A DNA stretch of 47,979 nucleotides from an uncultured Rhodospirillaceae bacterium (GCA_964462145.1 CAYWYB010000002.1:1-47979); one strand, 5' to 3'; shown: positions 5,442 to 46,138, counted from the first letter of the stretch. The notes: a model not told the origin generated them from the letters alone. Program-made: numbers and translations.

Positions 5442-5566
5442 GTACGGGAAGTGCACGAAAGAGTGAGGCAAGAACGCTTGGAAGACTTTGTTGACTTTGC
5501 GCCCGCTAGCGCAATATCAGGGTAACACACGGATTCTTGTCACAAATGGTCACGGCGGGAATGTGC

Positions 5567-6463
5567 ATGAAATATATTTTGGTTTTTTTGCTGGCCTGCA
5601 TTGGTTTAATTGTCGGCACCGACCGAGCCGATGCCGATGATGGGGATCGCTACCTCTATATTTATAATGCACCCGAATCCGCCACCGACCGGCGCTACGA
5701 CTATCAGTGGGAAATTCTGCGGACGGCCTTGGAAAAAACCAAGGGGAAATACGGCGCATACAAACTGCAGCCATCCGCGCCCATGAGCGAAAAGCGCCAG
5801 ACGATCGAGTTGACCAAGGGGTCCGGCGCACTCACCGTGATGCATTTGGGAACGACGCCGGAGTTTGAAAGAGACTTGCTGCCGATCCGCATTCCCGTCG
5901 ACAAGAATCTGTCGGGATACATGGTTTATCTGATCCGCCAGGAAGACCAGGCCAAGTTCAGCGCCGTACAAACCCTTGATGATCTGCGCAGATTCTCAAT
6001 CGGCCAGGGGCTTGGCTGGATTGATGTGGATATTCTGCAGCACAACGACTTCGACGTTGTGACCGGTTCCGATTATGACGGCCTCTTCCACATGCTTCTG
6101 GCGAAACGATTTGATGCCTTTCAACGATCGGCGGCGGAAATCATTGACGAGTTTGAGCAACGAAAAGACAAAATGCCCGACCTGCATATCGAGCAGGACA
6201 TTCTTTTTTACTATCCTCTGCCGATGTACTTTTGGTTTTCCAAATCAGAACAAGGTGAACGCATTGCCGCCCGCGCACGGGAAGGCATGATGGCAATGAT
6301 CGAAGATGGCACCTACGACGCCATATTCAGCAAGTACAACGAATACAAGATTGATCGCCTGCACCTGAGACAACGGCGCTTGTTCAAGATTGAAAACCCG
6401 CTGCTTGTGCCCGAGACCCCCTTTGGTGACAAACGGCTGTGGTTTGACCCCCTAAAAGATTGA
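5567..6463 (+). CDS. Secreted protein with a periplasmic solute-binding-like (family 3) fold, function unknown
   Basis: Signal peptide MKYILVFLLACIGLIVG. Overall resemblance to type-3 SBP-like orphan proteins. Codon usage is noticeably AT-richer than in the neighbouring genes. The start is uncertain (5561 or 5567). Confidence 0.5.
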   Translation: MKYILVFLLACIGLIVGTDRADADDGDRYLYIYNAPESATDRRYDYQWEILRTALEKTKGKYGAYKLQPSAPMSEKRQTIELTKGSGALTVMHLGTTPEFERDLLPIRIPVDKNLSGYMVYLIRQEDQAKFSAVQTLDDLRRFSIGQGLGWIDVDILQHNDFDVVTGSDYDGLFHMLLAKRFDAFQRSAAEIIDEFEQRKDKMPDLHIEQDILFYYPLPMYFWFSKSEQGERIAARAREGMMAMIEDGTYDAIFSKYNEYKIDRLHLRQRRLFKIENPLLVPETPFGDKRLWFDPLKD

Positions 6464-8279: not shown

Positions 8280-9257
8280 ATGAAAATCTGTGTTATTGGC
8301 GCCGGCGCCATGGGCGGCCTGTACGGCGGTCACTTGTTACTGGCCGGCAAGGACGTGCAATTTATTGAAATCCGCCAGGCAGCGGTCGATGCCCTGAACA
8401 ACGGCAGCTACATCTTTGACGGCATTGATGGCGAGCACCGCCTGAAGGCGTCAGCCGCGACCTCCGCCGATGGCCTGCCCGCCGCCGATATCGCCTTCAT
8501 CCATACGGATACCAACAATACCCAGGCGGCCGGCGAACATGCCAAGGCGGTGCTGAAGCCCGAAGGCTGGGCCGTGACCTTTCAAAACGGCGTCGGCAAT
8601 GTGGAAACCTTGTGTGAAATTCTGGGGCCCGAACGGGTGGTCGGCGGTATCAGCTATCACTCCGCCGCCTCGCCCAAGGCGGGCCACGCCACCCATACCA
8701 ATGCCAACAAGACCTGGATTGGCGAATTGCCCGGCGGCGGCAGCGCCCGGGTAGAACAATTGCGCGATCTGCTGGCGGAGGCGAATTTCGACCCGCATAT
8801 CGCCGACGATATCCAATCGGTAATCTGGACCAAGTTCATGCTGAACTGCGCCGTCAATCCGATGTGCGCCATAACCGGTTTACGCTCGGGCGAGGTCGGT
8901 TCGGATGCGGCGGCGGCTGAGATGCAGGAGCTGATCCTGGATGAAACCCTGGCCGTGATCGCCGCCAAGGGCATCACCTTGATGGACCCGGACCCCAAGG
9001 CATCCATAAAGCGTATCCTGGGCCGGGCCTTTAACAAGCCATCGATGCTACAGCATATGGAAGCAGGCCAGCGAACCGAGATCGATAGCCTGAACGGCGC
9101 CGTGGTCCGCGAAGGCGCAGCCTTGGGCATTCCCACGCCCTACAATCATGCCCTGACCATGCTGATCAAAGCCCGCAATGCCAACATGGTCCGGCAAATG
9201 CACGAACCGCCCATTGATTACGCGGCCCTGGAAGCGGCCCTACAGGCGGAACAATAG
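8280..9257 (+). CDS. 2-dehydropantoate 2-reductase (ApbA/PanE) family oxidoreductase
   Basis: N-terminal MKICVIGAGAMGGLYGG dinucleotide fold and the C-terminal ApbA_C-type helical domain (PSMLQHMEAGQRTEID). Confidence 0.8.
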   Translation: MKICVIGAGAMGGLYGGHLLLAGKDVQFIEIRQAAVDALNNGSYIFDGIDGEHRLKASAATSADGLPAADIAFIHTDTNNTQAAGEHAKAVLKPEGWAVTFQNGVGNVETLCEILGPERVVGGISYHSAASPKAGHATHTNANKTWIGELPGGGSARVEQLRDLLAEANFDPHIADDIQSVIWTKFMLNCAVNPMCAITGLRSGEVGSDAAAAEMQELILDETLAVIAAKGITLMDPDPKASIKRILGRAFNKPSMLQHMEAGQRTEIDSLNGAVVREGAALGIPTPYNHALTMLIKARNANMVRQMHEPPIDYAALEAALQAEQ

Positions 9258-9261
9258 CAGT

Positions 9262-9966
9262 ATGGGAAAATTCGTGTACAAAGACGAAGCCGGCGAATTC
9301 ACCGCCTATCTTGAACCCGGCGCAACGGTCGAGAGCAGCCATCCCGATATCGTGGCATTCGCCGAAACAGCCGCCGGCGATGCCGCATCGCCAAAGGAGG
9401 CTGCCGTAAATCTGTATTACGCGGTACGGGATCAGATCCGCTACAACCCCTATATCTCGGCCATTGAGGTCGAGGCGTTCCGCGCCACCACAACCCTGAC
9501 CGCCAAGGAAGGCTATTGCGTGGCCAAGGCGATCCTACTGGCGGCGGTCTGCCGGGCCAAGGGCATACCAGCGCGGCTTGGATTTGCCGATGTGCGCAAT
9601 CATTTATCGACGGAGAAAATGCGCCAGCGCATGCAGACCGATCAGTTCTATTGGCATGGCTACACGGACATCTATCTGGATGGCAAATGGGTCAAGGCGA
9701 CGCCGGCCTTCAATGTGGAGCTATGTGAAAAATTCGGACTGCGCCCTCTTGAGTTCGACGGCGAGGAAGATTCCATCTACCACCCCTTTGATGTCGCCGG
9801 CAGTCGGCATATGGAGTATTTGAAATTCCGTGGCGAATTCGCCGAACCGCCCTTGGAGCAGATCCATGCGACCTTCGTCCGCGAATATGCCCATTGGCGC
9901 AACAGAACCACCGAACCCATCGGCGATTTCGAAGCCGAAGTCGAAGAAGATTTGGGCGCGAGATAA
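9262..9966 (+). CDS. Transglutaminase-like cysteine peptidase superfamily protein (234 aa)
   Basis: Cys motif EGYCVAKAILLAAVCRAKGIPAR, followed by WHGYTDIYLDGKW (His) as in the transglutaminase core. It starts 4 nt after the stop of the upstream reductase gene. Confidence 0.8.
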   Translation: MGKFVYKDEAGEFTAYLEPGATVESSHPDIVAFAETAAGDAASPKEAAVNLYYAVRDQIRYNPYISAIEVEAFRATTTLTAKEGYCVAKAILLAAVCRAKGIPARLGFADVRNHLSTEKMRQRMQTDQFYWHGYTDIYLDGKWVKATPAFNVELCEKFGLRPLEFDGEEDSIYHPFDVAGSRHMEYLKFRGEFAEPPLEQIHATFVREYAHWRNRTTEPIGDFEAEVEEDLGAR

Positions 9967-9992
9967 AGAACCCGGCCAAGGATGGCGAACAC

Positions 9993-11024
9993 ATGCCAGG
10001 CGACGCAAATTTGCTTGCGACCATTCTCACCGATTTATGCGCGGCTATGGGGGCGGAACTTACCCTTGAGGCGGATTATGGCCGCGCCGGGTTCGTGACC
10101 TTCAAGAATGGCCGGCGCTGCTTTTTCAAAAACGCCTGTTTTGACATCAACGGCATGGGCGCGGCACAGATAACCAAGGACAAGGATTACTGCGCCAAAT
10201 TCCTCGACAAAGCCGGCCTGAACACACCCGCCAGCCGGATTATTTTCTCACCCAAGGCAGTTGCGGAATTCGCACTGAAAAACCCGGCCCTAGGCAAGCA
10301 GTTGGCGGCCCAATCGGACACTGCGAATGCGGTCGCGGAATTTGGCTTTCCCCTTTTTGTCAAACCCAATGAAGGCGCCGAGGGCCAGGGTGTCCTGCTG
10401 GTCCACACCGACGATGAATTGCAAAGCCATCTGAATCACCTGTACCTGGTGCATGATCAGGTGCTGCTGCAAAAACCCGTTCCCGGCAAGGACTACCGCG
10501 TTATCGTATTGGATGGCGAAGTGATCGCGGCCTATCTGCGCCAGCCCCTTGCCGTCATGGGCAATGGCAGGGATACAATCGCGCAATTGCTCTTGAAACG
10601 GCGGGACGAAGTGGCTCTCATGGGGCGGCCATCAGCGATTACGCCCGATGATCCAAGACTGCGACAGCATCTCGGCAGTCAGGGCCTAGATATCGACAAC
10701 GTTATCGAGGACGGCGTATGCGTAAGCCTGCTGGCGAACGCGAATTTATCTTCAGGTGGTGATGTGGTTGATATGACCGATACGATTGCTGCCGGCTACA
10801 AAGATGTTTCCGTGCAGGCGGCCAACGCCGTTGGGTTGAGGTTCGCGGGCGTCGATATCATCTGTCCATCAATCGAACATTTCGATGCTGCCTACGCGGT
10901 GCTGGAATTAAATGCGGCGCCGGGCTTAAACAACTATGGCGCAACGGGAGAGCGGGAGAAGCAGACCGTCATCGGCCTTTATCGGAAACTTCTGCTGGCA
11001 ATGGAAATGGGAGAGCCGGCATGA
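9993..11024 (+). CDS. ATP-grasp ligase resembling the cyanophycin-synthetase G-domain or glutathione-synthetase (343 aa)
   Basis: It has KDKDYCAKFL...FPLFVKPNEGAEGQGV...YRVIVLDGEVIAAY...ANLSSGG...AGVDII...LELNAAPGL, the canonical ATP-grasp motif order. The only in-frame ATG after the TGase stop is at 9993. Confidence 0.75.
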   Translation: MPGDANLLATILTDLCAAMGAELTLEADYGRAGFVTFKNGRRCFFKNACFDINGMGAAQITKDKDYCAKFLDKAGLNTPASRIIFSPKAVAEFALKNPALGKQLAAQSDTANAVAEFGFPLFVKPNEGAEGQGVLLVHTDDELQSHLNHLYLVHDQVLLQKPVPGKDYRVIVLDGEVIAAYLRQPLAVMGNGRDTIAQLLLKRRDEVALMGRPSAITPDDPRLRQHLGSQGLDIDNVIEDGVCVSLLANANLSSGGDVVDMTDTIAAGYKDVSVQAANAVGLRFAGVDIICPSIEHFDAAYAVLELNAAPGLNNYGATGEREKQTVIGLYRKLLLAMEMGEPA

Positions 11025-11974
11025 AAAATTCCGCACGGCAGTTTGTCTCCATCATCAAATCATATTGCGAGAGGAACAGGATCGAAATCGTCTCGCTGTC
11101 CCATGACTGGATCTTCGTGTTGCGGGGGCCCGCCGGCAACAAGATTATTTTCGGCTATGATCTGGGCCTCAATTCATCCTCCGTTCAGTCAACCGCGCGG
11201 GACAAGGCCGCGACCTTCGATGTCCTGAGCGCCTTGGGTATTCGGGCGGTACCGCACAGAATGTTTCTTGCACCGCGCTTTCTGAAACATATTGAACAGA
11301 ATGGAAACTGGCAGCGCATCATCGACTGTCACGAAGAAAATAACCGTGCCAGCGTCGTCAAGCCCAACGAAGGCACCGGCGGACTGGATGTCTTTCTGGT
11401 CCACGGCGCCGATGAATTGGAAGGCGCCGTGCACGAGGTCCTGTCGCGGGAGCGCAGCGTGGCACTGTCGCCGTATCTGCCGATTGCGCGCGAAGTCCGG
11501 GCCTATATCGCCTTCGATGAAGTGCCGCTGTTATATGAAAAAGTCCGCCCCTTCGTCACCGGCGACGGCAACGCCCGGGTGGCGGAACTGGCATGGAAAA
11601 AATTCGGTGCCGATGCCTTGGGCGGTATTGTTCAGGACCGCCGGCCGGACGAGAGACGGGAACTGCTCGCGCGCGTACCGGCGGCGGGCGCCGATGTGCC
11701 TCTCGGCTGGAAGCATAACCTGGGCCAGGGCAGCAAACTCCGCGCCTTGAATGTCGCCGAGCACGAAAAAGAGGTGCAACTGGCCAAAGGCACTGCTGCC
11801 GCCATGGGACTGAATTTCGGCGCCGTCGATATTGTCGAAATTGACGGTCGGCTGCAGATCCTTGAGGTCAACAGCGGCGTCATGTTCGAGAACGCCATTC
11901 GCAGCGGCGACATTGAATACGAAGCGGTCTACGGCATATATGCCCGCGCCCTCGATAGGCTGCTGGCGGATTGA
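11021..11974 (+). CDS. Second, paralogous ATP-grasp ligase (317 aa)
   Basis: Same motif order as the first ligase (RDKAATFDVL...VVKPNEGTGGLDV...VRAYIAFDEV...HNLGQGS...GAVDIV...LEVNSGV). Its ATGA start/stop overlaps the preceding ATP-grasp gene. Confidence 0.75.
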   Translation: MKNSARQFVSIIKSYCERNRIEIVSLSHDWIFVLRGPAGNKIIFGYDLGLNSSSVQSTARDKAATFDVLSALGIRAVPHRMFLAPRFLKHIEQNGNWQRIIDCHEENNRASVVKPNEGTGGLDVFLVHGADELEGAVHEVLSRERSVALSPYLPIAREVRAYIAFDEVPLLYEKVRPFVTGDGNARVAELAWKKFGADALGGIVQDRRPDERRELLARVPAAGADVPLGWKHNLGQGSKLRALNVAEHEKEVQLAKGTAAAMGLNFGAVDIVEIDGRLQILEVNSGVMFENAIRSGDIEYEAVYGIYARALDRLLAD

Positions 11975-17752: not shown

Positions 17753-17827
<75 letters not shown>

Positions 17828-18403: not shown

Positions 18404-21094
18404 TCAGCTGGCCTCTTGTATGCGGGTTTCGCGTAGGATCGCCTTGATTTCCATACGGCAAGAGCCGCAGTTGGTGCCGGCGTTCAGGGCATTACCGATG
18501 GCATCGACCGTGTTGCAGCCGCCCATGGTTGACGCTTCGATGATTTGGTTGCGTCCGACTTCGAAGCAGGCGCAGACTATGGTGCCGGGATCCGGCTCGG
18601 CACCGGCGGACCTGCCAGCCAACAATCGCAACCGCTGGGTGGGATCAGCAAACTCTGCGTCTAACTGTTCACTGGCCCAGGCGCGGGGAACTGTTATAGC
18701 CTCGGCAGCTACGAACAGCGCGCCCAGGAGTTTTTGGCCTTGAAAACAGGCGAAACGGTGCTGCCCCGCCTGTGCGTCATGGTAGGCAAGCAGTTCCGCG
18801 CCGGCGGTGTCGGTGATCTGCAACAAATCTTGGACAAACGCCGTCCAGTCTTCGGGCGGGCGTTTTCCGGCAAGCTCCATACGCCAACCGGTGCCGGCGG
18901 GCGCCATGGACCAATAGTCCCCGAACCGCTGGCTTGGCTTTGCTGCCATGAGGGCAAGACCGTGCCAAGCAGCCGTGAATGGCGCGATGGCGACGTTGCC
19001 CCGCTTGAATTCAGGTTGGCCGGAAACCGGATCGAGGTTGGCCGCGATCAAGGCGTTGACGCGCCCGTCACTGGCAAATTGATCGTTCCAATGCATGGGC
19101 ACAAAGATCGAGCCGGGCCGCTGCCGCGTCGTCTGCCGAACGCGAACTATAATTGACCCATGGGCGCTGCGGACCCGGGCCAGGGCCATATCCCGCAGTC
19201 CGTATTGCGCGGCGTCGTGGGGATGCACATCGACAAAGGGCTCGGACAGATGCTGCATCAAGCGCGCAGATTTGCCGGTCCGCGTCATGGTGTGCCATTG
19301 GTCGCGAATGCGCCCGCTGTTCAGAACCAGCGGGTAAGCGGCTGACTGCGCCTGGCCGGGTTCGGTATAAACCGTCGCCACAAAACGGGCGCGGCGATCC
19401 GGGGTAAAGAAGTTTCCATTGGCAAAAAATCGGCGTGGCTTTGCCTTATGGCCGGCGACCATGGGCCATTGAAACGGCTGCAGGCGATCGTAGTCATCAG
19501 CGGAAATCGTGTCATGGGCGGAGATGTCAAAATCCCGCGTACCGTCGTTGCGGAAGCCGGACAGTGCCGCATATTCCGAATAGATCCGAGACGGTTGTTC
19601 ATGGCCGAAAGCATCGGCAAAGCCCATGCGGCGGGCGACTTCCTGGATGATCCACCAATCGGGCCGTGCCGCACCGGGCATCGGCAGGAACGAACGTTGC
19701 CGCGAAATGCGGCGCTCCGAATTCGTCACAGTGCCGCTTTTTTCGCCCCAGGCGGCGGCGGGCAGCAGAACGTCCGCCTGGGCCGTTGTATCGGTATGGC
19801 GGGTCACGTCTGAGACCACGACAAAGGGACAGGCTTCCAATGCCGCGCGCACGCTATCAACCTCGGGCAGGCTATCCAGCGGATTCGTCGCCATGATCCA
19901 CAGCGCCTTGACGCGGCCATCGCGTACGGCCTCGAACAATTCGACCGCCTTTAGGCCGGGTTGTTCCGCCAGATTGGTGCTGCCCCAGAAATCGCCGACC
20001 AGGGCGCGGTGTGTGTCATTTTCAATATCCATGTGGCAGGCAAGCTGGTTGGCAAGGCCGCCGACCTCGCGTCCGCCCATGGCATTCGGCTGGCCGGTGA
20101 CCGAGAATGGCCCCATGCCGGGGCGGCCAATACGGCCCGTCAACAGATGGCAATTGATGATGGCATTGACCTTGTCCGTGCCGCTGCGGGATTGATTGAC
20201 GCCCTGGGAATAGACGGTGACCACGCGCTCGGTCCCTGCGAACAGATCGTAAAATTCCTGCAGCGCCGTGGGTTCAAGTTCCGTAAGCCGTGCGACATCG
20301 GCATTGCCAAAAGATTGAGCCGCCACCAACGCCGCATCCAATCCATTCGTGTGTCCATCGACATAGCCACGATCCATGGCGCCTGTATCGTGCAGATGCG
20401 CCAGCAGGCCATTAAACAGGGCGACGTCCGAACCGGGCTTCAACGGCAGATGCAGATCGGCGGCTTCCGATGTCGCGGTCTGGCGGGGATCAATGACGAC
20501 GATCTTGGTGTCGGTCTGATCCCGCGCCGCTGCAATGCGCTGAAACAGCACCGGATGGCACCAGGCCAGGTTGGAGCCAACCAGGACAATGACATCTGCC
20601 AACTCAAGATCTTCATAGCAACCCGGCACCGTGTCGGAGCCGAAGGCCCGCTTGTGTCCGGCGACCGAAGACGCCATGCAAAGCCGGGAGTTGGTATCGA
20701 TATTGGCGGAGCCGATGAAACCCTTCATCAGTTTGTTGGCCAGGTAATAGTCTTCGTTAAGCAATTGACCGGAGACGTAGAACGCGACCGAGTCCGGACC
20801 ATGCGCCGCGATGGTCTCCTGGAAGCGGTCCGCCACCTGGCCCAGCGCGGTATCCCAATCGGACGGCGCACCGTCTACAATTGGCTGCAGCAGCCGATCG
20901 TCCAATGACAAGGTTTCGGCCAGCGCAGTGCCTTTGGAGCAAAGGCGCCCGTAGTTTGAGGGATGCTCCGGGTCGCCTGTTATTTCCGTACTGCCATCGG
21001 CTCGAGTGGTGGCCAGAATGCCGCAGCCCACCCCACAATAGGGGCAGGTTGTCTTAACAGTCGTGCCGCACTTGGAACCAGTACCCTTGGTCAT
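18404..21094 (-). CDS. nasA: Assimilatory nitrate reductase catalytic subunit with a C-terminal BFD-like 2Fe-2S domain
   Basis: N-terminal CPYCGVGCG 4Fe-4S motif, a MopB core, and C-terminal CACFEV...CGSCRMEI. The ATG at 21094 lies 4 nt after the nirD stop. Confidence 0.9.
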   Translation of the reverse strand: MTKGTGSKCGTTVKTTCPYCGVGCGILATTRADGSTEITGDPEHPSNYGRLCSKGTALAETLSLDDRLLQPIVDGAPSDWDTALGQVADRFQETIAAHGPDSVAFYVSGQLLNEDYYLANKLMKGFIGSANIDTNSRLCMASSVAGHKRAFGSDTVPGCYEDLELADVIVLVGSNLAWCHPVLFQRIAAARDQTDTKIVVIDPRQTATSEAADLHLPLKPGSDVALFNGLLAHLHDTGAMDRGYVDGHTNGLDAALVAAQSFGNADVARLTELEPTALQEFYDLFAGTERVVTVYSQGVNQSRSGTDKVNAIINCHLLTGRIGRPGMGPFSVTGQPNAMGGREVGGLANQLACHMDIENDTHRALVGDFWGSTNLAEQPGLKAVELFEAVRDGRVKALWIMATNPLDSLPEVDSVRAALEACPFVVVSDVTRHTDTTAQADVLLPAAAWGEKSGTVTNSERRISRQRSFLPMPGAARPDWWIIQEVARRMGFADAFGHEQPSRIYSEYAALSGFRNDGTRDFDISAHDTISADDYDRLQPFQWPMVAGHKAKPRRFFANGNFFTPDRRARFVATVYTEPGQAQSAAYPLVLNSGRIRDQWHTMTRTGKSARLMQHLSEPFVDVHPHDAAQYGLRDMALARVRSAHGSIIVRVRQTTRQRPGSIFVPMHWNDQFASDGRVNALIAANLDPVSGQPEFKRGNVAIAPFTAAWHGLALMAAKPSQRFGDYWSMAPAGTGWRMELAGKRPPEDWTAFVQDLLQITDTAGAELLAYHDAQAGQHRFACFQGQKLLGALFVAAEAITVPRAWASEQLDAEFADPTQRLRLLAGRSAGAEPDPGTIVCACFEVGRNQIIEASTMGGCNTVDAIGNALNAGTNCGSCRMEIKAILRETRIQEAS

Positions 21095-21098
21095 CTTG

Positions 21099-21446
21099 TC
21101 AGGCCGCCCGTGCCGCCGCCAATGCCGCCAGGTCGAGGAGGATGCGGCCCTCGGCAAGTTTGAGCGAAAATGTCTTAACCCGGCCCTCGTCGGCGCCCTG
21201 CGCCTCGCCGGTCTCCAGACTGATGACCCAATTGTGCAGGGGGCATGTCACGGCCTTACCATGCACGATGCCCTGACTCAAAGGACCGCCGCCATGGGGG
21301 CAACGATCTTCAATGGCGAAAACTTCATCCGGGGCACTGCGGAACACCGCCAGGCAACCGGCGGGCGTCTTGATCACCCGGGCGCCGCGCACGGGAATAT
21401 CATCAAGCGGGCCGACGTCGACCCAGTTTTCTTCTTTCAGTTTCAT
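21099..21446 (-). CDS. nirD: Nitrite reductase small subunit (Rieske-like)
   Basis: A 115 aa protein with CPHGGGPL...CPLHNW motifs. It overlaps the nirB stop by 4 nt. Confidence 0.9.
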   Translation of the reverse strand: MKLKEENWVDVGPLDDIPVRGARVIKTPAGCLAVFRSAPDEVFAIEDRCPHGGGPLSQGIVHGKAVTCPLHNWVISLETGEAQGADEGRVKTFSLKLAEGRILLDLAALAAARAA

Positions 21447-23893
21447 TCCGCCGCCTCCAAGGTGACAAGATTGGCAAGTGGGGCAAACTCGCGGCTGCCG
21501 GGACCCATCGTTCGTTCAGCCCAGGGGTCCGACTGCGAGAACTTCTGCGAATGGACGAAGCGTTCGAATAGCGCCTGGCGCCGATCTGCATCTTCCAGCA
21601 AAAGCGTTCGAATGGTGTCGATACCGACTCGGCGGGCCCATTTGTAGATACGCTCGAGATAGTGGCCCTGTTCCCGATAGAGCTGCACCAGGGCAACAAT
21701 CATCTCCAACGCCTCGTCCTCGGTGGCGACCTTACCCAGGACCTCGGTGCCCTTGATGTCCAACCCGGCGGCGCCGGCGAAATGGATCTCGTAGCCGCTG
21801 TCGATGCAGATCACGCCCACATCCTTGCATGTGGCCTCCGAACAGTTTCGCGGGCAGCCCGATACCGCCATCTTGACCTTGGCCGGTGTCCACGAACCCC
21901 ACATGAATTTCTCGATCCGCATACCCAGGCCGGTGGAATCCTGTGTGCCGAAGCGGCACCAATCCGTTCCCACGCAGGTTTTCACCGTGCGCAATGCCTT
22001 GCCATATGCATGTCCCGACACCATGCCGGCGGCATTCAGGTCGGCCCACACGGCGGGCAGGTCTTCCTTTTGCACGCCCAGCATATCAATGCGTTGACCG
22101 CCCGTGCATTTGACCGCTGGAATGTCGAATTTGTCGACCACATCGGCGATGGCGCGCAATTCGTCCGCGCTGGTCATGCCGCCCCACATGCGGGGCACGA
22201 CGGAGTAGGTGCCGTCCTTTTGGATGTTGGCGTGTACCCGTTCGTTGATAAAGCGCGATTGGCCATCGTCGACATATTCGCCGGGCCATGTCGCCAGCAG
22301 ATAGTAGTTCAGGGCCGGTCGGCATTTTGCGCAGCCGCCCGAACTTGTCCATGCCAGCGCCTGCATGACATCGGGGATGGCTTTGAGTTTCTTGGCCACG
22401 ATCAGGTGGCGGATGTCCGCATGCCCCAGTTCCGTACAGCCGCACATGGGCTGGGTGCCGCTGGGATCATAGGCATCCCCCAATGTCGTGGCGAGCAGGC
22501 CTTCGACCAGGCCGGTACAAGTGCCGCACGAGGCGGAGGCCTTGGTATGCGCCCTGACATCATCAAGGGAGGTCAGGTTCTTGCCGTTGATGGCGGTAAC
22601 GATTTGGCTTTTGCAGACGCCGTTGCAGCCACAGATCTCTGCATCATCGGGCAGGGCGGCAACGGCTGCCATAGGGTCGGGCTGTGCGCCCCCAGCGTAG
22701 GCGGGACCAAAAATCAGAGTCTCGCGCATATCCGATATATCGGTGCTGTCCCTGATCAGTTGGAAGAACCAGGCACTGTCCGAGGTATCGCCATACAGCA
22801 CCGCGCCAATGACCGTATTGCCCTCGAGAACCAGGCGCTTGTATATACCGCCCTGGGCATCCCGCAGGACGATTTCGTCGCGATCGTCACCGTCCTCGAA
22901 ATCACCGGCGGAAAACAGATCAACCCCGGTTACCTTCAGTTTCGTGGCCAATGCGGTTTCCGTGAAACCATCGCCTTCAACACCGGCCAGCCGGGCCGAT
23001 AGTACGCTTGCCATGGCATACAGCGGGGCGACCAGACCATAGACGTTACCGCCGAATTCAACACATTCGCCGACCGCGAAAATATCGGGATCAGAGGTCT
23101 GCATGTGCGCATCGACCAGAATGCCCCGATTTGTGTCGATACCCCCAGCCTCAGCCAGGGCGGCGTTGGGCCGGATGCCCACAGCCATGATGACGATCTT
23201 GGCATCGATCTCGGTGCCATCGTCCAAACGCACGCCTTTTACATAGTCATCGCCGATGATCTCCTTGGTATTGGCGGACGTGATGACATTAATGCCCCGC
23301 GCCTCCAACTCACGTTGCAGCAGATGCCCCGCTGTCGGATCCAATTGCCGTTCCATCAAGGTTGGTCCTAGGTGGACCACCGTAACATTCATGCCCCGCT
23401 CTTTAAGGCCGGCGGCGGCCTCCAGCCCAAGAAGCCCGCCGCCGATTACAACGGCGTCGCCACCCGACTGCGCCGCGATCAACATGGCCTTCACATCGTC
23501 CATGTCGCGATAGGTCAGCACGCCCGGCAAATCGTGTCCGGGCACCGGAATGATAATGGGCACGGAGCCCGTGGCGATCAGCAACTTGTCGTAAGGGGCG
23601 GTGGTGCCGTCTTCTGACGTGACGACCTTGGCGTCCCGGTCGATGTTGGAGACCTTTCGCCCCTTTAGAAGGCGGACGCCATGTTGTTCGTACCAAGTGT
23701 CGCCATGGATGACGATTTCCTCGTATGACTTTTCACCGGAGAGTACCGGGGACAGCAGAATTCGATCGTAGTTGGTGCGCTGTTCGGCATTAAAGATTGT
23801 TACGTCGTAGGCATCCGGCGCGCTTTCAAAAAGCCGGTCCAAGACACGGCCCGGGGCCATGCCGTTGCCAATTACCACAAGTTTCTGCGTCAT
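21443..23893 (-). CDS. nirB: NAD(P)H-dependent nitrite reductase large subunit
   Basis: FAD/NAD fold (KLVVIGNGMAPG), a BFD-like CGCNGVC segment and the sirohaem/4Fe-4S motif (TCVGTDWCRFG...SGCPRNC). The start is placed at the ATG at 23893 (MTQKLVVIG). Confidence 0.95.
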   Translation of the reverse strand: MTQKLVVIGNGMAPGRVLDRLFESAPDAYDVTIFNAEQRTNYDRILLSPVLSGEKSYEEIVIHGDTWYEQHGVRLLKGRKVSNIDRDAKVVTSEDGTTAPYDKLLIATGSVPIIIPVPGHDLPGVLTYRDMDDVKAMLIAAQSGGDAVVIGGGLLGLEAAAGLKERGMNVTVVHLGPTLMERQLDPTAGHLLQRELEARGINVITSANTKEIIGDDYVKGVRLDDGTEIDAKIVIMAVGIRPNAALAEAGGIDTNRGILVDAHMQTSDPDIFAVGECVEFGGNVYGLVAPLYAMASVLSARLAGVEGDGFTETALATKLKVTGVDLFSAGDFEDGDDRDEIVLRDAQGGIYKRLVLEGNTVIGAVLYGDTSDSAWFFQLIRDSTDISDMRETLIFGPAYAGGAQPDPMAAVAALPDDAEICGCNGVCKSQIVTAINGKNLTSLDDVRAHTKASASCGTCTGLVEGLLATTLGDAYDPSGTQPMCGCTELGHADIRHLIVAKKLKAIPDVMQALAWTSSGGCAKCRPALNYYLLATWPGEYVDDGQSRFINERVHANIQKDGTYSVVPRMWGGMTSADELRAIADVVDKFDIPAVKCTGGQRIDMLGVQKEDLPAVWADLNAAGMVSGHAYGKALRTVKTCVGTDWCRFGTQDSTGLGMRIEKFMWGSWTPAKVKMAVSGCPRNCSEATCKDVGVICIDSGYEIHFAGAAGLDIKGTEVLGKVATEDEALEMIVALVQLYREQGHYLERIYKWARRVGIDTIRTLLLEDADRRQALFERFVHSQKFSQSDPWAERTMGPGSREFAPLANLVTLEAAE

Positions 23894-23999
23894 TTCCGTA
23901 CCGGCAGCTGCCGTTCCCTGAATTTCACTGCTTTGCCTGGGAGATCTCATCGCGGGCGGCAATATTGCAGCGCACAATGAAATCCCTGCTCTCTTCCAA

Positions 24000-24014
24000 G
24001 CAAGAGCTGTGCCA
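24000..24014 (-). promoter_or_regulatory. Sigma-54 (-24/-12) promoter directed at nirBD-nasA
   Basis: The minus strand reads TGGCAC-AGCTC-TTGC, an exact match to TGGCAC-N5-TTGC. The -12 element lies about 107 nt upstream of the nirB ATG. Confidence 0.7.
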
Positions 24015-24122
24015 ACTCAAGAAAATTCTTAATAGGCTGAAATTAAAGGGAAAAATTTTTCGCGTGGAGAATTGATTAATCTTGCGCCGCATAAAATTCG
24101 TACAAATCGGCATGTTATGATG

Positions 24123-24156
24123 AAAAAATAGGCGAAAATATATGCGCCTATTTTTT
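24123..24156. promoter_or_regulatory. Perfect 12-bp inverted repeat (AAAAAATAGGCG-N10-CGCCTATTTTTT) between the two sigma-54 promoters
   Basis: The arms at 24123-24134 and 24145-24156 are exact reverse complements. Related TAGGCG motifs occur at 24156-24161 and 24245-24250. Confidence 0.6.
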
Positions 24157-24207
24157 AGGCGAAGAATGAAGTCTTTATATTTCAATGCCTTAGCGCGTTT
24201 CAAAAGT

Positions 24208-24222
24208 TGGCACGAATATTGC
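24208..24222 (+). promoter_or_regulatory. Sigma-54 (-24/-12) promoter directed at narK and the kinase gene
   Basis: The plus strand reads TGGCAC-GAATA-TTGC, an exact consensus match, 64 nt upstream of the narK ATG at 24286. Confidence 0.7.
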
Positions 24223-24285
24223 GACGCAACAAAAGACGGGCGCATAGGCGTTCACTTCAGTACCGGCAGTAAATGGGAACACGCA

Positions 24286-25764
24286 ATGTCAGTTAGCAAG
24301 GGCGTACTTAACCCCCTCAATCTGAAAGATCCGAAAATACGCACCCTGCATTTCACCTGGGTCGCCTTCTTCATCTCGTTTTTTGTCTGGTTCAACCACG
24401 CGCCGCTGATGGCCTCGATCCGGGATACCTTCGGGCTGAGCAAGCAGGAAGTCATTGCCCTGCTCATTCTGAATGTGTCGCTTACCATCCCTGCGCGGAT
24501 AATCGTTGGCATGCTGGTGGACAAGCTTGGCCCACGGATCGTCTACTCAGTATTGCTGGTCATTTCTGGTCTGCTGTGCGTTGCCTTTGCCCTCGCCGAT
24601 AGTTTCGAGGCCATGGCGGTAACACGGTTCCTGCTTGGATTTGTCGGGGCCGGTTTTGTCATCGGTATTCGCATGGTGGGCGAATGGTTCCCGGCCAGGC
24701 AGGTTGGTGTTGCCGAAGGCATATACGGCGGCTGGGGCAATTTCGGCTCCGCCGCCGCGGCCATGACCCTGCCGACATTGGCATTCTTCTTCGGCGGCGA
24801 AGACGGCTGGCGCTGGGCCATCGGCTGTACCGGGGCCGTCGCGATTATCTACGCCGGCATTTATTATAAATCCGTGCGCAACACGCCCAAGGGCTCGACC
24901 TATTTCAAACCCAAAAAGACCGGCGCCATGGAGGTCACATCAAAGCGCGACTTCTTCATCTACATTTTCATGCTGGCGCCAATGATGCTGGCCCTTGGCG
25001 TGCTTGCCTGGAAGTTGGGACCGGGCAATCTATCCATGCTGTCTGCGACGGCGACCAATGGGATCTATGGCGTTCTTGCCGCCCTCTACGGCTATCAGGT
25101 CTATCAGGCCTGGAAAATCAACCGGGACGTTTTCAGGAGATCCGTACCGCAGATCCACCGCTACAAATTCAAGCAGGTCGCCGTGCTCGATCTGGCCTAT
25201 TTGGTAACCTTCGGCTCGGAACTGGCGGTGGTCTCCATGCTGCCCCTGTTCTTTATGGACACGTTTGGTCTGTCCACCGTCATGGCGGGACTGTTGGCGT
25301 CGGGCTATGCGTTCATGAACCTTGTTGCCCGACCGGGCGGCGGCCTGCTTTCGGACCGCTTTGGCCGCAAACGAACCTTGTTGATCCTATTAACGGGGCT
25401 GGCCTGCGGCTATCTCGCCATGTCGCAGATCACCTCGAGCACCTGGCTGCCCCTGGCGATCATCACCACCATGGCCTGCTCGTTCTTTGTTCAGGCTGGA
25501 GAAGGCGCGGTGTTTGCCATGGTGCCCATTGTCAAACGGCGCATGACCGGCCAGATCGCCGGCCAGGTCGGTGCCTATGGCAGCGTCGGCGCTGTGACGT
25601 TTCTGACCGTGCTATCGTTCGTGACGCCGCAGCTGTTTTTCCTCATCATTGGCGCCACGGCCATTGTCACCATCGTCGCGACACTGCTGTTCTTGGACGA
25701 ACCAAAAGGCCAGGTGGCCGAAGAGATGCCTGACGGCAGCATAGCCATGATCGACGTGGGATAG
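24286..25764 (+). CDS. narK: MFS nitrate/nitrite transporter (NarK/NrtP type)
   Basis: A 12-TM MFS profile with nitrate/nitrite porter signatures ([20 protein letters not shown]). The start is placed at the ATG at 24286 ([11 protein letters not shown]). Confidence 0.9.
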
Positions 25765-25786
25765 ACGCCATGACCGAGATGCCAAA

Positions 25787-27502
25787 ATGAGCGGCGGGCC
25801 GGACGTCGTCATCGGGCAATGTTCCATTGCCGGGCGTAAGGCGCGCAACGATGATTCCTATGGCGTCTTGATTCCCGAGGGTCCTCTGCTTTTGACCAAG
25901 GGCATCGCCATGGCCATCGCGGACGGCATGTCCTCGTCCGAAGCGGCGAAAGAGGCCAGCGAAACCTGCGTCAAAAGCTTTCTCGACGACTATTTCTCCA
26001 CCCATGAAAGCTGGACCGCGAAAAAATCCGTCGCCGCCGTACTAAAGGCCACCAACAACTGGCTCTATGCCCAGGGACAAACCGTCTATCTTTCGAACCG
26101 TGGCATGGTCACGACGTTTTCGGGCCTCGTCCTGAAGGCCGGCATGGCGCACGTCTTCCATGCCGGGGATACCAGGATATCGTTACTTAGGGATGGCACG
26201 TTGGAGCCTCTGACCCGCGACCACCGGCTCCGCGTCTCGCGCAATCAGGAGTACTTGTCGCGCGCCTTGGGCATCGATCCCGACCTGGAAGTGGATTACC
26301 GCAGCGAGGCGTTGGCCCAGGGCGATGTCCTGGTATTCACCTCCGACGGTGTGCACGACCATGTTGATCCGGGACAAATCTGCAAGATCGTCGGGGGCGC
26401 CGGCGATGATCTGGACGCCGCCGCCCGTGCCATTGTGCAAAGCGCCTTCGACAATGCCAGCGAGGACAATCTCACTTGCCAGCTTGTCAAGGTGCTTGAT
26501 CCAGGCCGAATTGATGAAAACAGTCATCTTCGGCAATTGACGGCGTTGCCGTTTCCACCGGACCTATCGCCGGGCATGACGTTCGAGGGCTATCACATCA
26601 TTGCTGAGTTGCATGCCAGCAAACGCGTTCAGGTCTATTTGGCGGCTGATGTGGCGAGCAAGGCAAGGGTGGTCATCAAAACGCCCTCGGTCAACTACGA
26701 GGACGACCCGGCCTATATCGAAATGTTCACGCGCGAGGAATGGGTCGGGCGCCGCCTGCAAAGTCCCCATGTTGTCCGCGTGGTACAGGATCGGGGGCCC
26801 AAGCGTTTTCTCTACTACGTAACCGAATTCATTGACGGCGATACCTTGCGGATTTGGATGGAGAAGAACCCAAAACCGAAAACATCAGAGGTTCGCCGCA
26901 TCGCCGAACAGATCGCCATCGGTCTTCGCGCCTTTCACCGTAAGGATATGGTGCATCAGGACCTAAAGCCCGAGAACATCATCATTGACGAATACGGTAG
27001 CGCAAAAATCATAGATTTTGGTTCGACGGGCATTGCGGGTTTGGATGAAATTGACAGCCCATCTGATATCCCAACCTTGGTTGGCACCCTGGGTTATACG
27101 GCGCCCGAATACCATCTGGGGGAGAAGCCGACCAATCGTAGCGACATTTTTTCCCTCGGTGTCATCGTCTATGAAATGCTGACCGGCAAGCTGCCCTATG
27201 GTGAAGGATTTACCAGTGCGAAGGCAGCCTCGCGACTGACATCTACCGCCGCTTCCACTCATGATCCGTCGATACCAACTTGGGTCTCGGCAACCTTGGC
27301 CAAGGCAACCCATTGCGATCCTGGCAAACGCTACGATGCGCTATCTGCTTTTATTTACGACCTCGGCCGGCCTAATTCGAACTTGGAACAAGTCTCGGTT
27401 CGCCCGTTGATAGAGCGTCATCCGCTAGCATTCTGGAAATGGCTGGCTGTTGCTTCGTTGTTAATCAATCTTGCTCTTCTCTATGCCCTGAACGCCCTAT
27501 AA
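25787..27502 (+). CDS. Bifunctional PP2C-type Ser/Thr phosphatase plus Hanks-type Ser/Thr protein kinase, C-terminally membrane-anchored (571 aa)
   Basis: The N-terminal approximately 240 aa carry PP2C motifs (RNDDSYG, IADGMSS, VFTSDGVHD, ASEDNLT). The kinase has VIKTP (Lys), HQDLKPENI, DFG and GTLGYTAPE motifs. A terminal TM helix is present (FWKWLAVASLLINLALLYAL). The gene starts 22 nt after narK. Confidence 0.85.
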   Translation: MSGGPDVVIGQCSIAGRKARNDDSYGVLIPEGPLLLTKGIAMAIADGMSSSEAAKEASETCVKSFLDDYFSTHESWTAKKSVAAVLKATNNWLYAQGQTVYLSNRGMVTTFSGLVLKAGMAHVFHAGDTRISLLRDGTLEPLTRDHRLRVSRNQEYLSRALGIDPDLEVDYRSEALAQGDVLVFTSDGVHDHVDPGQICKIVGGAGDDLDAAARAIVQSAFDNASEDNLTCQLVKVLDPGRIDENSHLRQLTALPFPPDLSPGMTFEGYHIIAELHASKRVQVYLAADVASKARVVIKTPSVNYEDDPAYIEMFTREEWVGRRLQSPHVVRVVQDRGPKRFLYYVTEFIDGDTLRIWMEKNPKPKTSEVRRIAEQIAIGLRAFHRKDMVHQDLKPENIIIDEYGSAKIIDFGSTGIAGLDEIDSPSDIPTLVGTLGYTAPEYHLGEKPTNRSDIFSLGVIVYEMLTGKLPYGEGFTSAKAASRLTSTAASTHDPSIPTWVSATLAKATHCDPGKRYDALSAFIYDLGRPNSNLEQVSVRPLIERHPLAFWKWLAVASLLINLALLYALNAL

Positions 27503-30763: not shown

Positions 30764-31029
30764 CAGGTAATCGTTGGCCCGTCTTCGTTTGGCTTCACGG
30801 TTCGGTCGCCGTCGCGAAGCGGTCGCGCCAGCATGGCGGTTCCCGCGATCAACAGGGCCCAGACAACAAATACATAGAGCAGCGGCAGGGGCACGCCGGC
30901 GATCTTGGCGTCGATCAAGGATATCCCCGCGATCGGCGGCAACAGCACCCCGACGCCGAGCAATAGCAGCGCCAACGAACGGCGCCTGGCCTTGCGCGGC
31001 GCATCAAAGGCACCATCGTTTCTTTTCAT
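30763..31029 (-). CDS. Small two-TM membrane protein translationally coupled to the SSF-kinase (88 aa)
   Basis: It has two hydrophobic helices. Its TGA shares one nucleotide with the kinase ATG (TGATG at 30761-30765). Confidence 0.55.
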   Translation of the reverse strand: MKRNDGAFDAPRKARRRSLALLLLGVGVLLPPIAGISLIDAKIAGVPLPLLYVFVVWALLIAGTAMLARPLRDGDRTVKPNEDGPTIT

Positions 31030-44747: not shown

Positions 44748-45968
44748 ATGGGCGAGACGGGGCCGTTGATGGGATCGCTGCGGCGCAATTTTTGGTTTTT
44801 GGTGGCGATTGGCGGTCTGATTTCTCTCCTGGGATTTGGCATTCGGGCCAATTTCGGCCTTTTTCTAGCACCCATGTCCGTCGATCTGGGCTGGGGACGG
44901 GAGGTCTTCGCCCTGGCCATCGCCATTCAGAACCTGATGTGGGGCCTGGGCCAGCCGGTGGCCGGTATGATCGCCGACCGCTTTGGCACGGGCCGGGTCC
45001 TTGCCGTGGGCGGGGCGCTGTATGGGCTGGGCATCTATGGCATGGCGCATGCCACCAGCCCAGGCATGTTTCATATCACGGGCGGCCTTGTGGTTGGTCT
45101 TGGCATGTCCGGGGCCTCATTTCCGCTGGTTCTGGCGGCTCTGGGCCGCATGGTGCCCGAAGCCCGACGCAATCTGGCTTTCGGCATCTGTACCGCCGCC
45201 GGCTCCATGGGGCAGTTCCTGCTGGTGCCGATGGGGCAGGCCTTTCTGGCGGCCTATGGCTGGCCTTTCGCGCTGACATTGCTGGCCCTGATGATCGCAC
45301 TGGTAATCCCGTTGAGTACGGTTCTGCGCGGCCGCGCCGCCGAACCGGCGGAAAGCGAAAAGCAGTCCATGGGCCAGGCCCTAACCGAGGCCCGGCAGCA
45401 TTCGGGATATCTATACCTGACCGCCGGTTTTTTCGTCTGTGGTTTTCATATCGCCTTCATCGGCACCCATTTACCGGCCTATATTACCGATCGGGGCCTG
45501 TCGGCGGAGTTGGGCGCCCAATCCCTGGCCCTGGTGGGTTTATTCAACATCTTTGGCGCCATTGGCGCCGGCGTCCTGGGCAACCGGTTTCAAAAGAAAA
45601 ATCTGCTGAGTTTTCTCTACCTGCTCCGTGCCGTGGCCATTGCACTATTCATACTGCTGCCCATCGGTCCAACGACCGTACTGTTATTTTCCGCCGCCAT
45701 TGGCCTGACCTGGCTATCAACGGTGCCCTTGACCTCCGGCATCGTGGCCCAGGTTTTCGGGCCGCGTTATATGGCGACTTTGTTCGGATTCGTTTTCCTT
45801 TCGCACCAGATGGGCTCGTTCCTGGGCGTCTGGCTGGGCGGCAAATTGTTTGACGAGACAGGTTCCTACGACATTGTCTGGTGGCTTGGCGTCGCTTTGG
45901 GGCTGTTCGCCGCCCTGGTGCACCTGCCCATTGATGAGCGGCCGGCGACCCGTCTGGCAACCGCCTGA
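44748..45968 (+). CDS. MFS transporter (12 TM)
   Basis: Hydrophobicity pattern and the MFS loop motif GMIADRFGTGRV. The ATG at 44748 is preceded by AAGGAAGGG. Confidence 0.85.
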   Translation: MGETGPLMGSLRRNFWFLVAIGGLISLLGFGIRANFGLFLAPMSVDLGWGREVFALAIAIQNLMWGLGQPVAGMIADRFGTGRVLAVGGALYGLGIYGMAHATSPGMFHITGGLVVGLGMSGASFPLVLAALGRMVPEARRNLAFGICTAAGSMGQFLLVPMGQAFLAAYGWPFALTLLALMIALVIPLSTVLRGRAAEPAESEKQSMGQALTEARQHSGYLYLTAGFFVCGFHIAFIGTHLPAYITDRGLSAELGAQSLALVGLFNIFGAIGAGVLGNRFQKKNLLSFLYLLRAVAIALFILLPIGPTTVLLFSAAIGLTWLSTVPLTSGIVAQVFGPRYMATLFGFVFLSHQMGSFLGVWLGGKLFDETGSYDIVWWLGVALGLFAALVHLPIDERPATRLATA

Positions 45969-46138
45969 CAGGTCCCGCGACGGAGCCCGCAAAACTCCCG
46001 TTTCAGAGAAAATCTTGATGAAATATTAAGATTTTCAATGGCCTAATATCCAATTATCGAAACTGCCCGGTAGGCGTATCGCCAAATGCCCATATGCATT
46101 GCCGGCATCGCCGGGCAGCAGCACCTTAAGGCTTGAAC

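Follow-up and report, generated by a model that had tools for sequence, protein, structure and literature searches.

Do four closely packed genes necessarily serve one pathway, or can they be a composite in which only some of the neighbours belong together? The question is raised by positions 8280-11974 of a 47,979-nucleotide (nt) stretch of DNA from an uncultured Rhodospirillaceae bacterium (GCA_964462145.1, CAYWYB010000002.1:1-47979; the whole stretch is called the window here), where genes for an ApbA/PanE-type reductase, a transglutaminase-core protein and two ATP-grasp ligases, named LigA and LigB in this work, follow one another. A first-pass annotation, made from the sequence alone, had read them as a four-gene operon assembling and maturing a small peptide or amide. 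The best overall explanation of the evidence presented here is a composite region in which LigA and LigB form the functional unit and carry out two successive ligations, a reading to which we assign a probability of about 0.6. High confidence attaches to one part of this reading, namely that three independent modules make up the region and that the ligase pair is a real unit among them. The features concerned, taken from the list of open reading frames (ORFs) and Pfam or, in the case of the overlap, from the junction sequence, are the following.

8280-9257, plus strand: ApbA/PanE reductase gene, 325 amino acids (ORF list, Pfam)
9262-9966, plus strand: gene for a transglutaminase-core Cys-His protein, 234 amino acids (ORF list, Pfam)
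9993-11024, plus strand: LigA ATP-grasp ligase gene, 343 amino acids (ORF list, Pfam)
11021-11024, plus strand: ATGA start/stop overlap of LigA and LigB (read from the junction sequence)
11021-11974, plus strand: LigB ATP-grasp ligase gene, 317 amino acids (ORF list, Pfam)

The genes, their strand and their spacing are exactly as first annotated: 4 nt lie between the reductase and transglutaminase genes (9258-9261), 26 nt between the transglutaminase gene and LigA (9967-9992), and LigA and LigB overlap by the 4 nt ATGA. Starts and lengths of all four genes match the gene calls in close relatives, and a Shine-Dalgarno-like GGGAGAG motif stands ahead of the LigB start codon. The overlap, which reads as a signature of translational coupling between LigA and LigB, is also kept in three related loci (L006, L011 and L013). 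A simple scan detected no promoter-like or terminator-like sites beyond chance between the four genes, and no RNA sequencing runs carrying the locus sequence were found, the sequence being found in seawater DNA metagenomes only. Given the tight spacing, the four genes are probably co-transcribed in the source genome and its closest relatives.

The strongest evidence for a functional unit within this group comes from the recurrence of the two ligase genes as neighbours elsewhere. LigA directly adjoins LigB in both possible orders: A-then-B at L022 (Rhodobacteraceae), L025, L029 (Azospirillaceae), L117 and L145, and B-then-A at L003/L008, L042 and L050 (Thermoanaerobaculia), L056 (Lachnospiraceae), L073 (Christensenellaceae), L080 (Pedosphaera), L090, L132, L136 and L142; at L010 only, the two genes converge. 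Adjacency is thus spread over at least five phylum-level groups, with hosts including Alphaproteobacteria, Thermoanaerobaculia, Lachnospiraceae, Christensenellaceae and Pedosphaera. Since the immediate neighbour of any gene is one of a few thousand genes, this recurrence lies far beyond chance. In a neighbour-joining tree of LigB, genes adjacent to LigA occupy at least four deep clades, the clade of the window is sister to other paired loci, and the LigA tree broadly agrees with that of LigB.

Natural gene fusions point in the same direction. LigB relatives are encoded on at least 569 stretches of a species-representative genome collection, and a LigB profile run with HMMER against 1.84 billion representative proteins matched 889 of them at E<=1e-30. 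Among the best matches to this profile are proteins of 640-750 amino acids with two matched stretches. Four clusters (P0352, P0353, P0354 and P0358), one of them with 62 members from many contigs, are fusions of an N-terminal LigB to a C-terminal LigA, each half scoring 274-311 bits against the profile of its own family and 74-90 bits against that of the other. Tandem fusions of two LigB-like modules also occur (P0347-P0349, P0437, P0441, P0467, P0484 and P0485), including one from the diplonemid eukaryote Lacrimia lanifica (P0484, from an EukProt transcriptome); overall, two-module fusion proteins span 590-818 amino acids. Taken together, adjacency in either order, matching phylogenies and natural fusion show that the two enzymes act in one process. 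The expectation that the two ligases work together is therefore borne out, through adjacency across phyla and through LigB-LigA fusions.

The complete quartet has a much narrower distribution, as became clear when public assemblies were surveyed for orthologues of the two ligases and of the transglutaminase-like protein. All four genes and all their flanks are kept in relatives with LigB 85-93% identical to that of the window (L011-L015, L018, L019 and L021); a rhodanese gene flanks the quartet at one end, and the opposite flank holds genes for a dCMP-deaminase-like protein, a low-molecular-weight phosphatase, UPF0262, hisD, hisG, DUF2948 and murA. The quartet is confined to this narrow clade of marine Rhodospirillaceae/Alphaproteobacteria metagenome genomes. 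In genomes a little further away the flanks are unchanged but enclose different content. In L006, L007 and L020, where LigB is 70% identical, the reductase gene is followed by an opposite-strand ParE toxin/antitoxin cassette and then by LigA-LigB, and the transglutaminase gene is missing. The ParE toxin gene and its 75-amino-acid upstream partner, on the opposite strand, occupy L006:6370-6869 (and likewise L007 and L020), the equivalent of window positions 9258-9992. DNA alignment of these loci with the window shows homology ending at the stop codon of the reductase gene and resuming at the start codon of LigA, the pattern of a clean cassette swap between the toxin/antitoxin and transglutaminase genes; the interval between the reductase gene and LigA thus behaves as a small cassette-exchange site. 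A third form of the site is found on the contig of a transglutaminase homologue 80% identical to that of the window (P0234), where RidA and glyoxalase genes on the opposite strand come after the reductase and transglutaminase genes and the site lacks ligases. The reductase gene is the constant element in all three forms, and the transglutaminase gene and the ligase pair come and go independently of each other.

These arrangements bear directly on the reading in which all four proteins serve one pathway, the reductase making a 2-hydroxy acid, the ligases building a depsipeptide-like or peptide product and the transglutaminase-fold enzyme maturing or hydrolysing it. The common strand and the gaps of 4, 26 and -4 nt, which make co-transcription likely, favour that reading, as does retention of the arrangement in the several relatives with closely similar LigB. 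Against it stand the occurrence of the site with ligases but with the ParDE cassette in place of the transglutaminase gene, and its occurrence with the reductase and transglutaminase genes but without ligases. Since the site occurs in relatives in both of these incomplete forms, the four genes do not constitute one obligate pathway. Outside the close clade, tblastn placed a reductase or transglutaminase gene directly beside the ligases at none of 81 LigB loci (76 of the 80 scanned species-representative genome loci and five fetched from assemblies), and none of about 45 full-length metagenome LigA loci had either gene directly beside LigA; weak matches (28-30% identity, E 1e-7 to 1e-10) lie 3-7 kb away at L028, L033, L040 and L082. 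Rates of divergence also separate the genes: across four relatives the reductase is 96, 91, 92 and 90% identical to that of the window and HisG 100, 99, 96 and 95%, but LigA is only 90, 77, 74 and 66% identical and is the fastest-evolving gene compared in the neighbourhood. Synteny therefore largely refutes the single-pathway model, which we consider very unlikely. The orthologue-neighbourhood survey proposed in the first-pass annotation accordingly gave a divided answer: the ligase pair recurs, while the reductase and transglutaminase genes are not syntenic with it outside the close clade and, given the three forms of the site, are independent.

The properties of the reductase and of the transglutaminase-like protein are consistent with this independence. 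The reductase matches both Pfam ApbA and ApbA_C and passes TIGR00745, the 2-dehydropantoate reductase model, at the subfamily level (233 bits against a cut-off of 141), all equivalog-level models remaining below cut-off; the solved structures closest to it are all annotated as ketopantoate reductases (2-dehydropantoate 2-reductases). By sequence it belongs to the PanE/ApbA 2-dehydropantoate 2-reductase family, with an exact substrate that the models do not settle, and its gene appears to be a resident of the conserved site backbone, outside the ligase module. The second protein matches Pfam Transglut_core with 63.6 bits (cut-off 23), in a vast and unusually conserved family with at least 7,999 matches. 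Of the best 120 homologues, 23 were aligned; they share 57-88% identity with the protein of the window, and mean column identity across the resulting 24 sequences, which come from several lineages, is 65% (alignment A3). C86 and H132 are invariant in these sequences, as are the motifs ADVRNH and RHMEY. The expected position of the catalytic Asp carries an Ala in the invariant context K-A-T-P, so that a Cys-His pair is what the sequence presents. In one distant locus checked, the 12.7-kb Minwuia locus L099, neither a ligase nor a reductase gene accompanies the transglutaminase homologue, and the gene is best described, on its distribution, as a stand-alone, independent cassette. The proposals that the reductase supplies a 2-hydroxy acid to the ligases and that the transglutaminase-like protein matures their product gained nothing from this work, since no evidence linking either protein to the ligases turned up. 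Base composition adds a hint of mobility: G+C at third codon positions is 0.67 in the transglutaminase gene and 0.64 in LigA, against 0.70-0.83 in neighbouring genes, a difference suggestive of transfer, yet too weak alone as a mark of it.

The identity of the two ligases can be approached through homology, fold and individual residues. BLASTP aligns LigA with LigB at 25% identity over 286 columns (E 2e-14), and both proteins follow the motif order DK, VKPN-G-G, R, GDG, N-L-G-G, D, E-x-N, in agreement with their initial description as paralogues with the same motif order; LigB is a distant paralogue of LigA and belongs to a widespread family of its own. The Pfam RimK-type ATP-grasp model matches both ligases (60.9 and 27.8 bits against a cut-off of 21). 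The curated models rank differently for the two, with cyanophycin synthetase followed by N-acetylglutaminylglutamine synthetase and GshAB for LigA, and with RimK-family, MptN and cyanophycin synthetase first for LigB, and all NCBIfam matches of both proteins lie several-fold below the curated cut-offs. LigA reaches 147-149 bits against the cyanophycin synthetase models TIGR02068 and NF010623 (cut-offs 850-877), covering model positions 231-449 only, and LigB scores 26.6 bits against the cyanophycin synthetase model. The GshAB model NF002688 gives 116 bits against 425, with the ATP-grasp part alone matched, and the Ngg model TIGR03103 gives 127 bits against 569 (E 8.5e-37). For the two ligases, rimK_fam (TIGR00768) yields 76.6 and 47.9 bits against 143.4, MptN 47 and 35 against 350, and LysX 52 and 23 against 276; CofF reaches 28.9 against 300. 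The ligases thus stand outside characterised families such as RimK and CphA. Profiles of the two families compared with the CphA1/CphA2 G domains gave E 5e-51 for LigA and E 8e-12 for LigB.

Structural comparison leads to the same neighbourhood. The AlphaFold2 (AF2) models have mean predicted local distance difference test (pLDDT) values of 93.9 for LigA and 90.5 for LigB. The best Foldseek matches of LigA are 3ln6 (GshF, E 1e-23) and 7wae (CphA1), with TM-scores relative to the query (TMq) of 0.67-0.71, and that of LigB is CphA1 (7wae, TMq 0.72); RimK, Ddl, LysX/ArgX and PsnB follow behind at 0.40-0.57. The early impression of a cyanophycin-synthetase or glutathione-synthetase resemblance is upheld, since the CphA1 G domain, CphA2 and the GshF module are the best relatives by sequence or structure, and the clade placement by structure prediction that had been suggested puts both ligases nearest the CphA1 G domain and the GshF module.

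At the residue level, K64, K124, R169, R183, N251, D288, E305 and N307 are conserved in the LigA family, and K62, K114, E158, R160, K174, H232, N233, D270, E282, N284 and E290 are invariant in that of LigB. The ATP-grasp hallmarks are therefore present in both, as K124/R169/D288/E305/N307 in LigA and K114/R160/D270/E282/N284 in LigB, and both carry the CphA G-omega insertion 'V-x-G-D/N-G ... N-L-x-x-G'. Residues of TeCphA1 (PMC9427784) were mapped onto the ligases through HMMER alignments; the local alignment of LigB with CphA was mis-registered at E-x-N and was re-registered by hand on the Mg-ligand motif. The ATP-binding lysines K220 and K261 and the Mg ligands D431, E450 and N452 are kept in both proteins, the acyl-phosphate arginine R309 corresponds to R169 in LigA and R160 in LigB, R323 to R183 and K174, and N394 to N251 and N233. 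Because GshF has them too, these kept residues are uninformative on amino-acid specificity. The residues specific to cyanophycin synthesis are H267 of the P-loop, R458, which contacts the Asp alpha-carboxylate, and E215', which contacts the primer Arg side chain (PMC9427784). H267 is replaced by E130 in LigA and G120 in LigB, R458 by N313 in a variable column of LigA and, as far as sequence registration allows, by E290 in LigB, and E215 by Q59 in a variable column of LigA. Both proteins are very probably active carboxylate-amine ligases of the CphA-G/GshF/Ngg clade, judging by sequence and predicted structure. By the same sequence criteria they are not cyanophycin synthetases, and the name 'cyanophycin synthetase' that several database records give to the LigA family is supported neither by domain content nor by the key residues.

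This resemblance nevertheless leaves room for a split, non-canonical poly-amino-acid synthetase, cyanophycin-like or of a poly-Asp/Glu-like kind, in which backbone elongation would fall to LigA and the addition of a side chain or a second type of residue to LigB. The closeness of LigA to the CphA G domain (the profile E value of 5e-51 and TMq of 0.71) and its retention of the equivalents of R309, R323, N394, S396, D431 and E450 are what such an enzyme would be expected to have, and single ATP-grasp enzymes such as RimK and MyfB can be processive polymerases (PMC8141765). Neither ligase, however, has the N domain that anchors the polymer in CphA1 or the MurE-like M domain; the equivalents of H267, R458 and E215 are not kept, and 147 bits fall far short of a cut-off of 850. 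Neighbour clustering showed no recurrent cyanophycinase-like gene, although no search aimed at cyanophycinase was made. A divided polymerase of this kind is an unlikely explanation.

Modification of a protein in the manner of RimK would make different use of the same fold. The Pfam RimK domain is matched in both ligases, RimK, LysX and ArgX are second-tier structural matches, and LigB, like RimK, has a Glu at the 'PGLE' position; the genes also lie mostly alone, without biosynthetic neighbours, which would fit a ubiquitous protein substrate. The scores of 76.6 and 47.9 bits against about 143 for TIGR00768 weigh in the opposite direction, as do the G-omega insertion typical of CphA and GshF in both proteins, the TMq of about 0.7 to the CphA/GshF clade against about 0.5, and the lack of a carrier-protein gene or conserved small ORF nearby. 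We regard protein modification as improbable.

The genomic neighbours of the ligases offer few clues to their substrates. Neighbour clustering over 80 LigB loci and about 45 LigA loci found no conserved third gene around the LigA-LigB pair. LigB neighbours are lineage-specific housekeeping genes, such as those for LexA, pyruvate dehydrogenase E1, Lrp, glyoxalase, threonine synthase, dGTPase, PheS and fumarase, and the only recurrent partners are LigA itself, an ABC exporter (three loci) and, in one LigA clade, a CofE-like gene. No conserved small ORF was found among ORFs of 25-100 amino acids within 1.2 kb of 12 pair loci, and a PADLOC search of the four window proteins for anti-phage defence gave no match. 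With no conserved third gene, small ORF or defence-system signature around the pair, the pair probably acts on common metabolites or on a ubiquitous macromolecule. No paper on the LigA or LigB families came up in full-text searches. Two loci deserve separate mention. The region with the convergent pair (L010:1-13398) looks mobile and is also defence-like, with a phage-type integrase, a Vsr endonuclease, a UvrD/PD-(D/E)XK helicase-nuclease and a large ORC/CDC6-like ATPase. A role of cyanobacterial LigA homologues as MysD in mycosporine synthesis was considered and rejected, the Cylindrospermum locus L016 having no mycosporine genes.

The same surveys speak to the idea that the ligases are macrocyclases of the graspetide (microviridin) type acting on a ribosomal precursor, with the transglutaminase-fold protein as leader peptidase. 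Microviridin clusters do use two paralogous ATP-grasp ligases (PMC12848669), an ABC exporter gene lies 3' of the pair in L003/L008, and PsnB is a weak structural match. No conserved small ORF, however, accompanies the 12 pair loci, PsnB stays in the second tier at TMq 0.40-0.46, the Pfam graspetide-type ATP-grasp model is unmatched, and the transglutaminase gene is not conserved with the pair. The idea is highly improbable.

A second kind of pairing is found in a large, separate LigA clade, in which LigA adjoins a CofE-like F420_ligase (PF01996) gene at ten metagenome loci (L101, L102, L106, L112, L113, L125, L128, L130, L131 and L134). Three arrangements occur, with the CofE-like gene upstream, downstream or on the other strand. 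Genes for DHFR, dCMP deaminase, a MazG-like protein and a Vut_1 transporter are found at these loci as well, and LigB at none of them. The arrangement suggests a ligase pair acting on a cofactor or folate tail. Considering LigB adjacency together with CofE-like adjacency in the separate clade, LigA-type enzymes tend to pair with another amide-forming ligase, which is LigB in some cases and a CofE-like gamma-glutamyl ligase in others.

From these elements, the composite reading can be set out as a mechanism. Module 1 would be the PanE/ApbA-family reductase gene, part of the site backbone; module 2, the gene for a stand-alone transglutaminase-core enzyme, held as a cassette; and module 3, LigA and LigB, the functional unit proper. 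In each ligase, ATP would phosphorylate the carboxylate of the substrate to an acyl-phosphate, which an amine would then attack to form an amide bond. The two enzymes would act one after the other, possibly as a hetero-oligomer, and from common cellular building blocks would assemble a short peptide or extend a small carboxylate-bearing metabolite by a peptide tail. LigB may act before LigA, a guess based on the N-to-C order found in the LigB-LigA fusions and in GshF. Coenzyme F420 offers a precedent for the use of two ligases, CofE and CofF. The known members of the CphA-G/GshF clade all join a peptide or N-acyl amino acid, through its carboxylate, to a free amino acid. The details of CphA are described in PMC9427784, and in methylofuran synthesis the ATP-grasp ligases MyfA and MyfB act sequentially (PMC8141765). 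Two successive ligations are inferred from the pairing with a second ligase, the chemistry of the characterised clade members and the CofE/CofF and MyfA/MyfB precedents. The specific two-step route to a short peptide or peptide tail is put forward tentatively, as somewhat short of an even chance.

Several observations weigh against this interpretation. No partner gene lies within 5-10 kb at about 85% of the loci of either family; each enzyme can therefore act by itself or with a partner encoded elsewhere, and the two need not act in sequence. The LigA relatives associated with CofE-like genes are only 31-39% identical to the LigA of the window. Iterative polymerisation would accord equally well with the resemblance to the CphA G domain, and the tight spacing of the four genes would be compatible with a lineage-specific functional link of the transglutaminase-like protein to the ligases.

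The value of the composite reading with two successive ligations lies in what it offers for orphan enzymes. Free-standing homologues of the CphA G domain with no assigned function are common, and adjacency, co-phylogeny and fusion together provide a concrete, testable handle on two such families, while correcting the four-gene reading of the region. ATP-grasp ligases are sought for peptide biocatalysis, for which a new two-step pair might be of use. The chemistry itself is familiar, and no long-standing question is opened by it. It is conceivable, although we would not count on it, that LigA with LigB, together with LigA and its CofE-like partner, represents a widespread, so far uncharacterised two-ligase system of cyanophycin-synthetase/GshF ATP-grasp descent that makes a new small peptide metabolite, the peptide tail of a cofactor or a poly-amino acid. 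Such a system would extend from marine Alphaproteobacteria to Firmicutes, Acidobacteriota and Verrucomicrobiota, with LigB-LigB tandems in metagenomes and in a diplonemid.

Other parts of the window hold features of separate interest. A 308-amino-acid ORF at 5537-6463 (plus strand), with a TTG start, a signal-peptide-like N-terminus, no Pfam match and a G+C content of 0.517 against 0.593 for the window, sits between genes for an NAD-binding dehydrogenase and an alpha/beta-hydrolase. The closest relative, L018, has this ORF and L011 and L013 lack it, for which reason it is probably a recent insertion. In a 1-kb profile, AT skew reaches +0.31 and +0.25 at 29001-31000, inside a minus-strand gene for an 890-amino-acid histidine kinase, and -0.28 at 45001-46000. 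An assimilatory nitrate/nitrite cluster occupies 18404-27502, and the window has a single tRNA gene, as listed below.

17753-17827, plus strand: tRNA-Thr (GGT), the only Rfam/ARAGORN match in the window
18404-21157, minus strand: molybdopterin oxidoreductase with a BFD domain
21443-23977, minus strand: NirB-like nitrite reductase
24142-25764, plus strand: major facilitator superfamily (MFS) transporter
25787-27502, plus strand: fused PP2C phosphatase / Ser-Thr kinase protein

Several known systems can be compared with the genes described here, among them the ATP-grasp/alpha-E/transglutaminase/Anbu systems that Iyer et al. reportedly delineated in 2009 by comparative genomics. They likewise place an amidoligase gene beside a transglutaminase-fold gene, but they combine a circularly permuted ATP-grasp with alpha-E, and the adjacency of ligase and transglutaminase genes found here is not conserved; Pfam detects neither CP_ATPgrasp nor Alpha-E domains in the four proteins. 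The alpha-L-glutamate ligases RimK, MptN and CofF resemble LigA and LigB as ATP-grasp enzymes that add amino acids to the carboxylate of a protein or cofactor tail, and the CofE plus CofF arrangement is mirrored by the LigA clade paired with a CofE-like gene. They and MyfA/MyfB differ in that the corresponding models match weakly and that no methylofuran, tetrahydromethanopterin (H4MPT) or F420 genes lie near the ligases. The N-acetylglutaminylglutamine amide synthetase Ngg, a protein with GNAT and ATP-grasp parts, belongs to the same ATP-grasp clade and makes a small dipeptide from common amino acids, whereas the ligases have neither a GNAT domain nor an AsnO partner.

CphA1 and CphA2 share with both ligases the G-core/lid/omega architecture of the G domain, including the 'V-x-G-D/N-G ... 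A-N-L-S-x-G-G' insertion, and the equivalents of K220, K261, R309, R323 (K174 in LigB), N394, D431 and E450. CphA1 differs in uniting N, G and MurE-like M domains in about 870-930 amino acids, whereas the ligases are free-standing proteins of 317-343 amino acids that have not kept H267, R458 or E215 and score 5-6 times below the cut-offs; the combination of G and MurE-like domains in CphA has its counterpart here in two paralogous genes or a LigB-LigA fusion. The bifunctional glutathione synthetase GshF/GshAB, in which the ATP-grasp module is C-terminal, entrusts the first step to a GshA-type domain, which is not an ATP-grasp and of which the ligases have none, and thiol-related gene context is lacking here. 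It nonetheless belongs to the same clade and carries out two successive ligations on one polypeptide, as is proposed for the LigB-LigA fusions.

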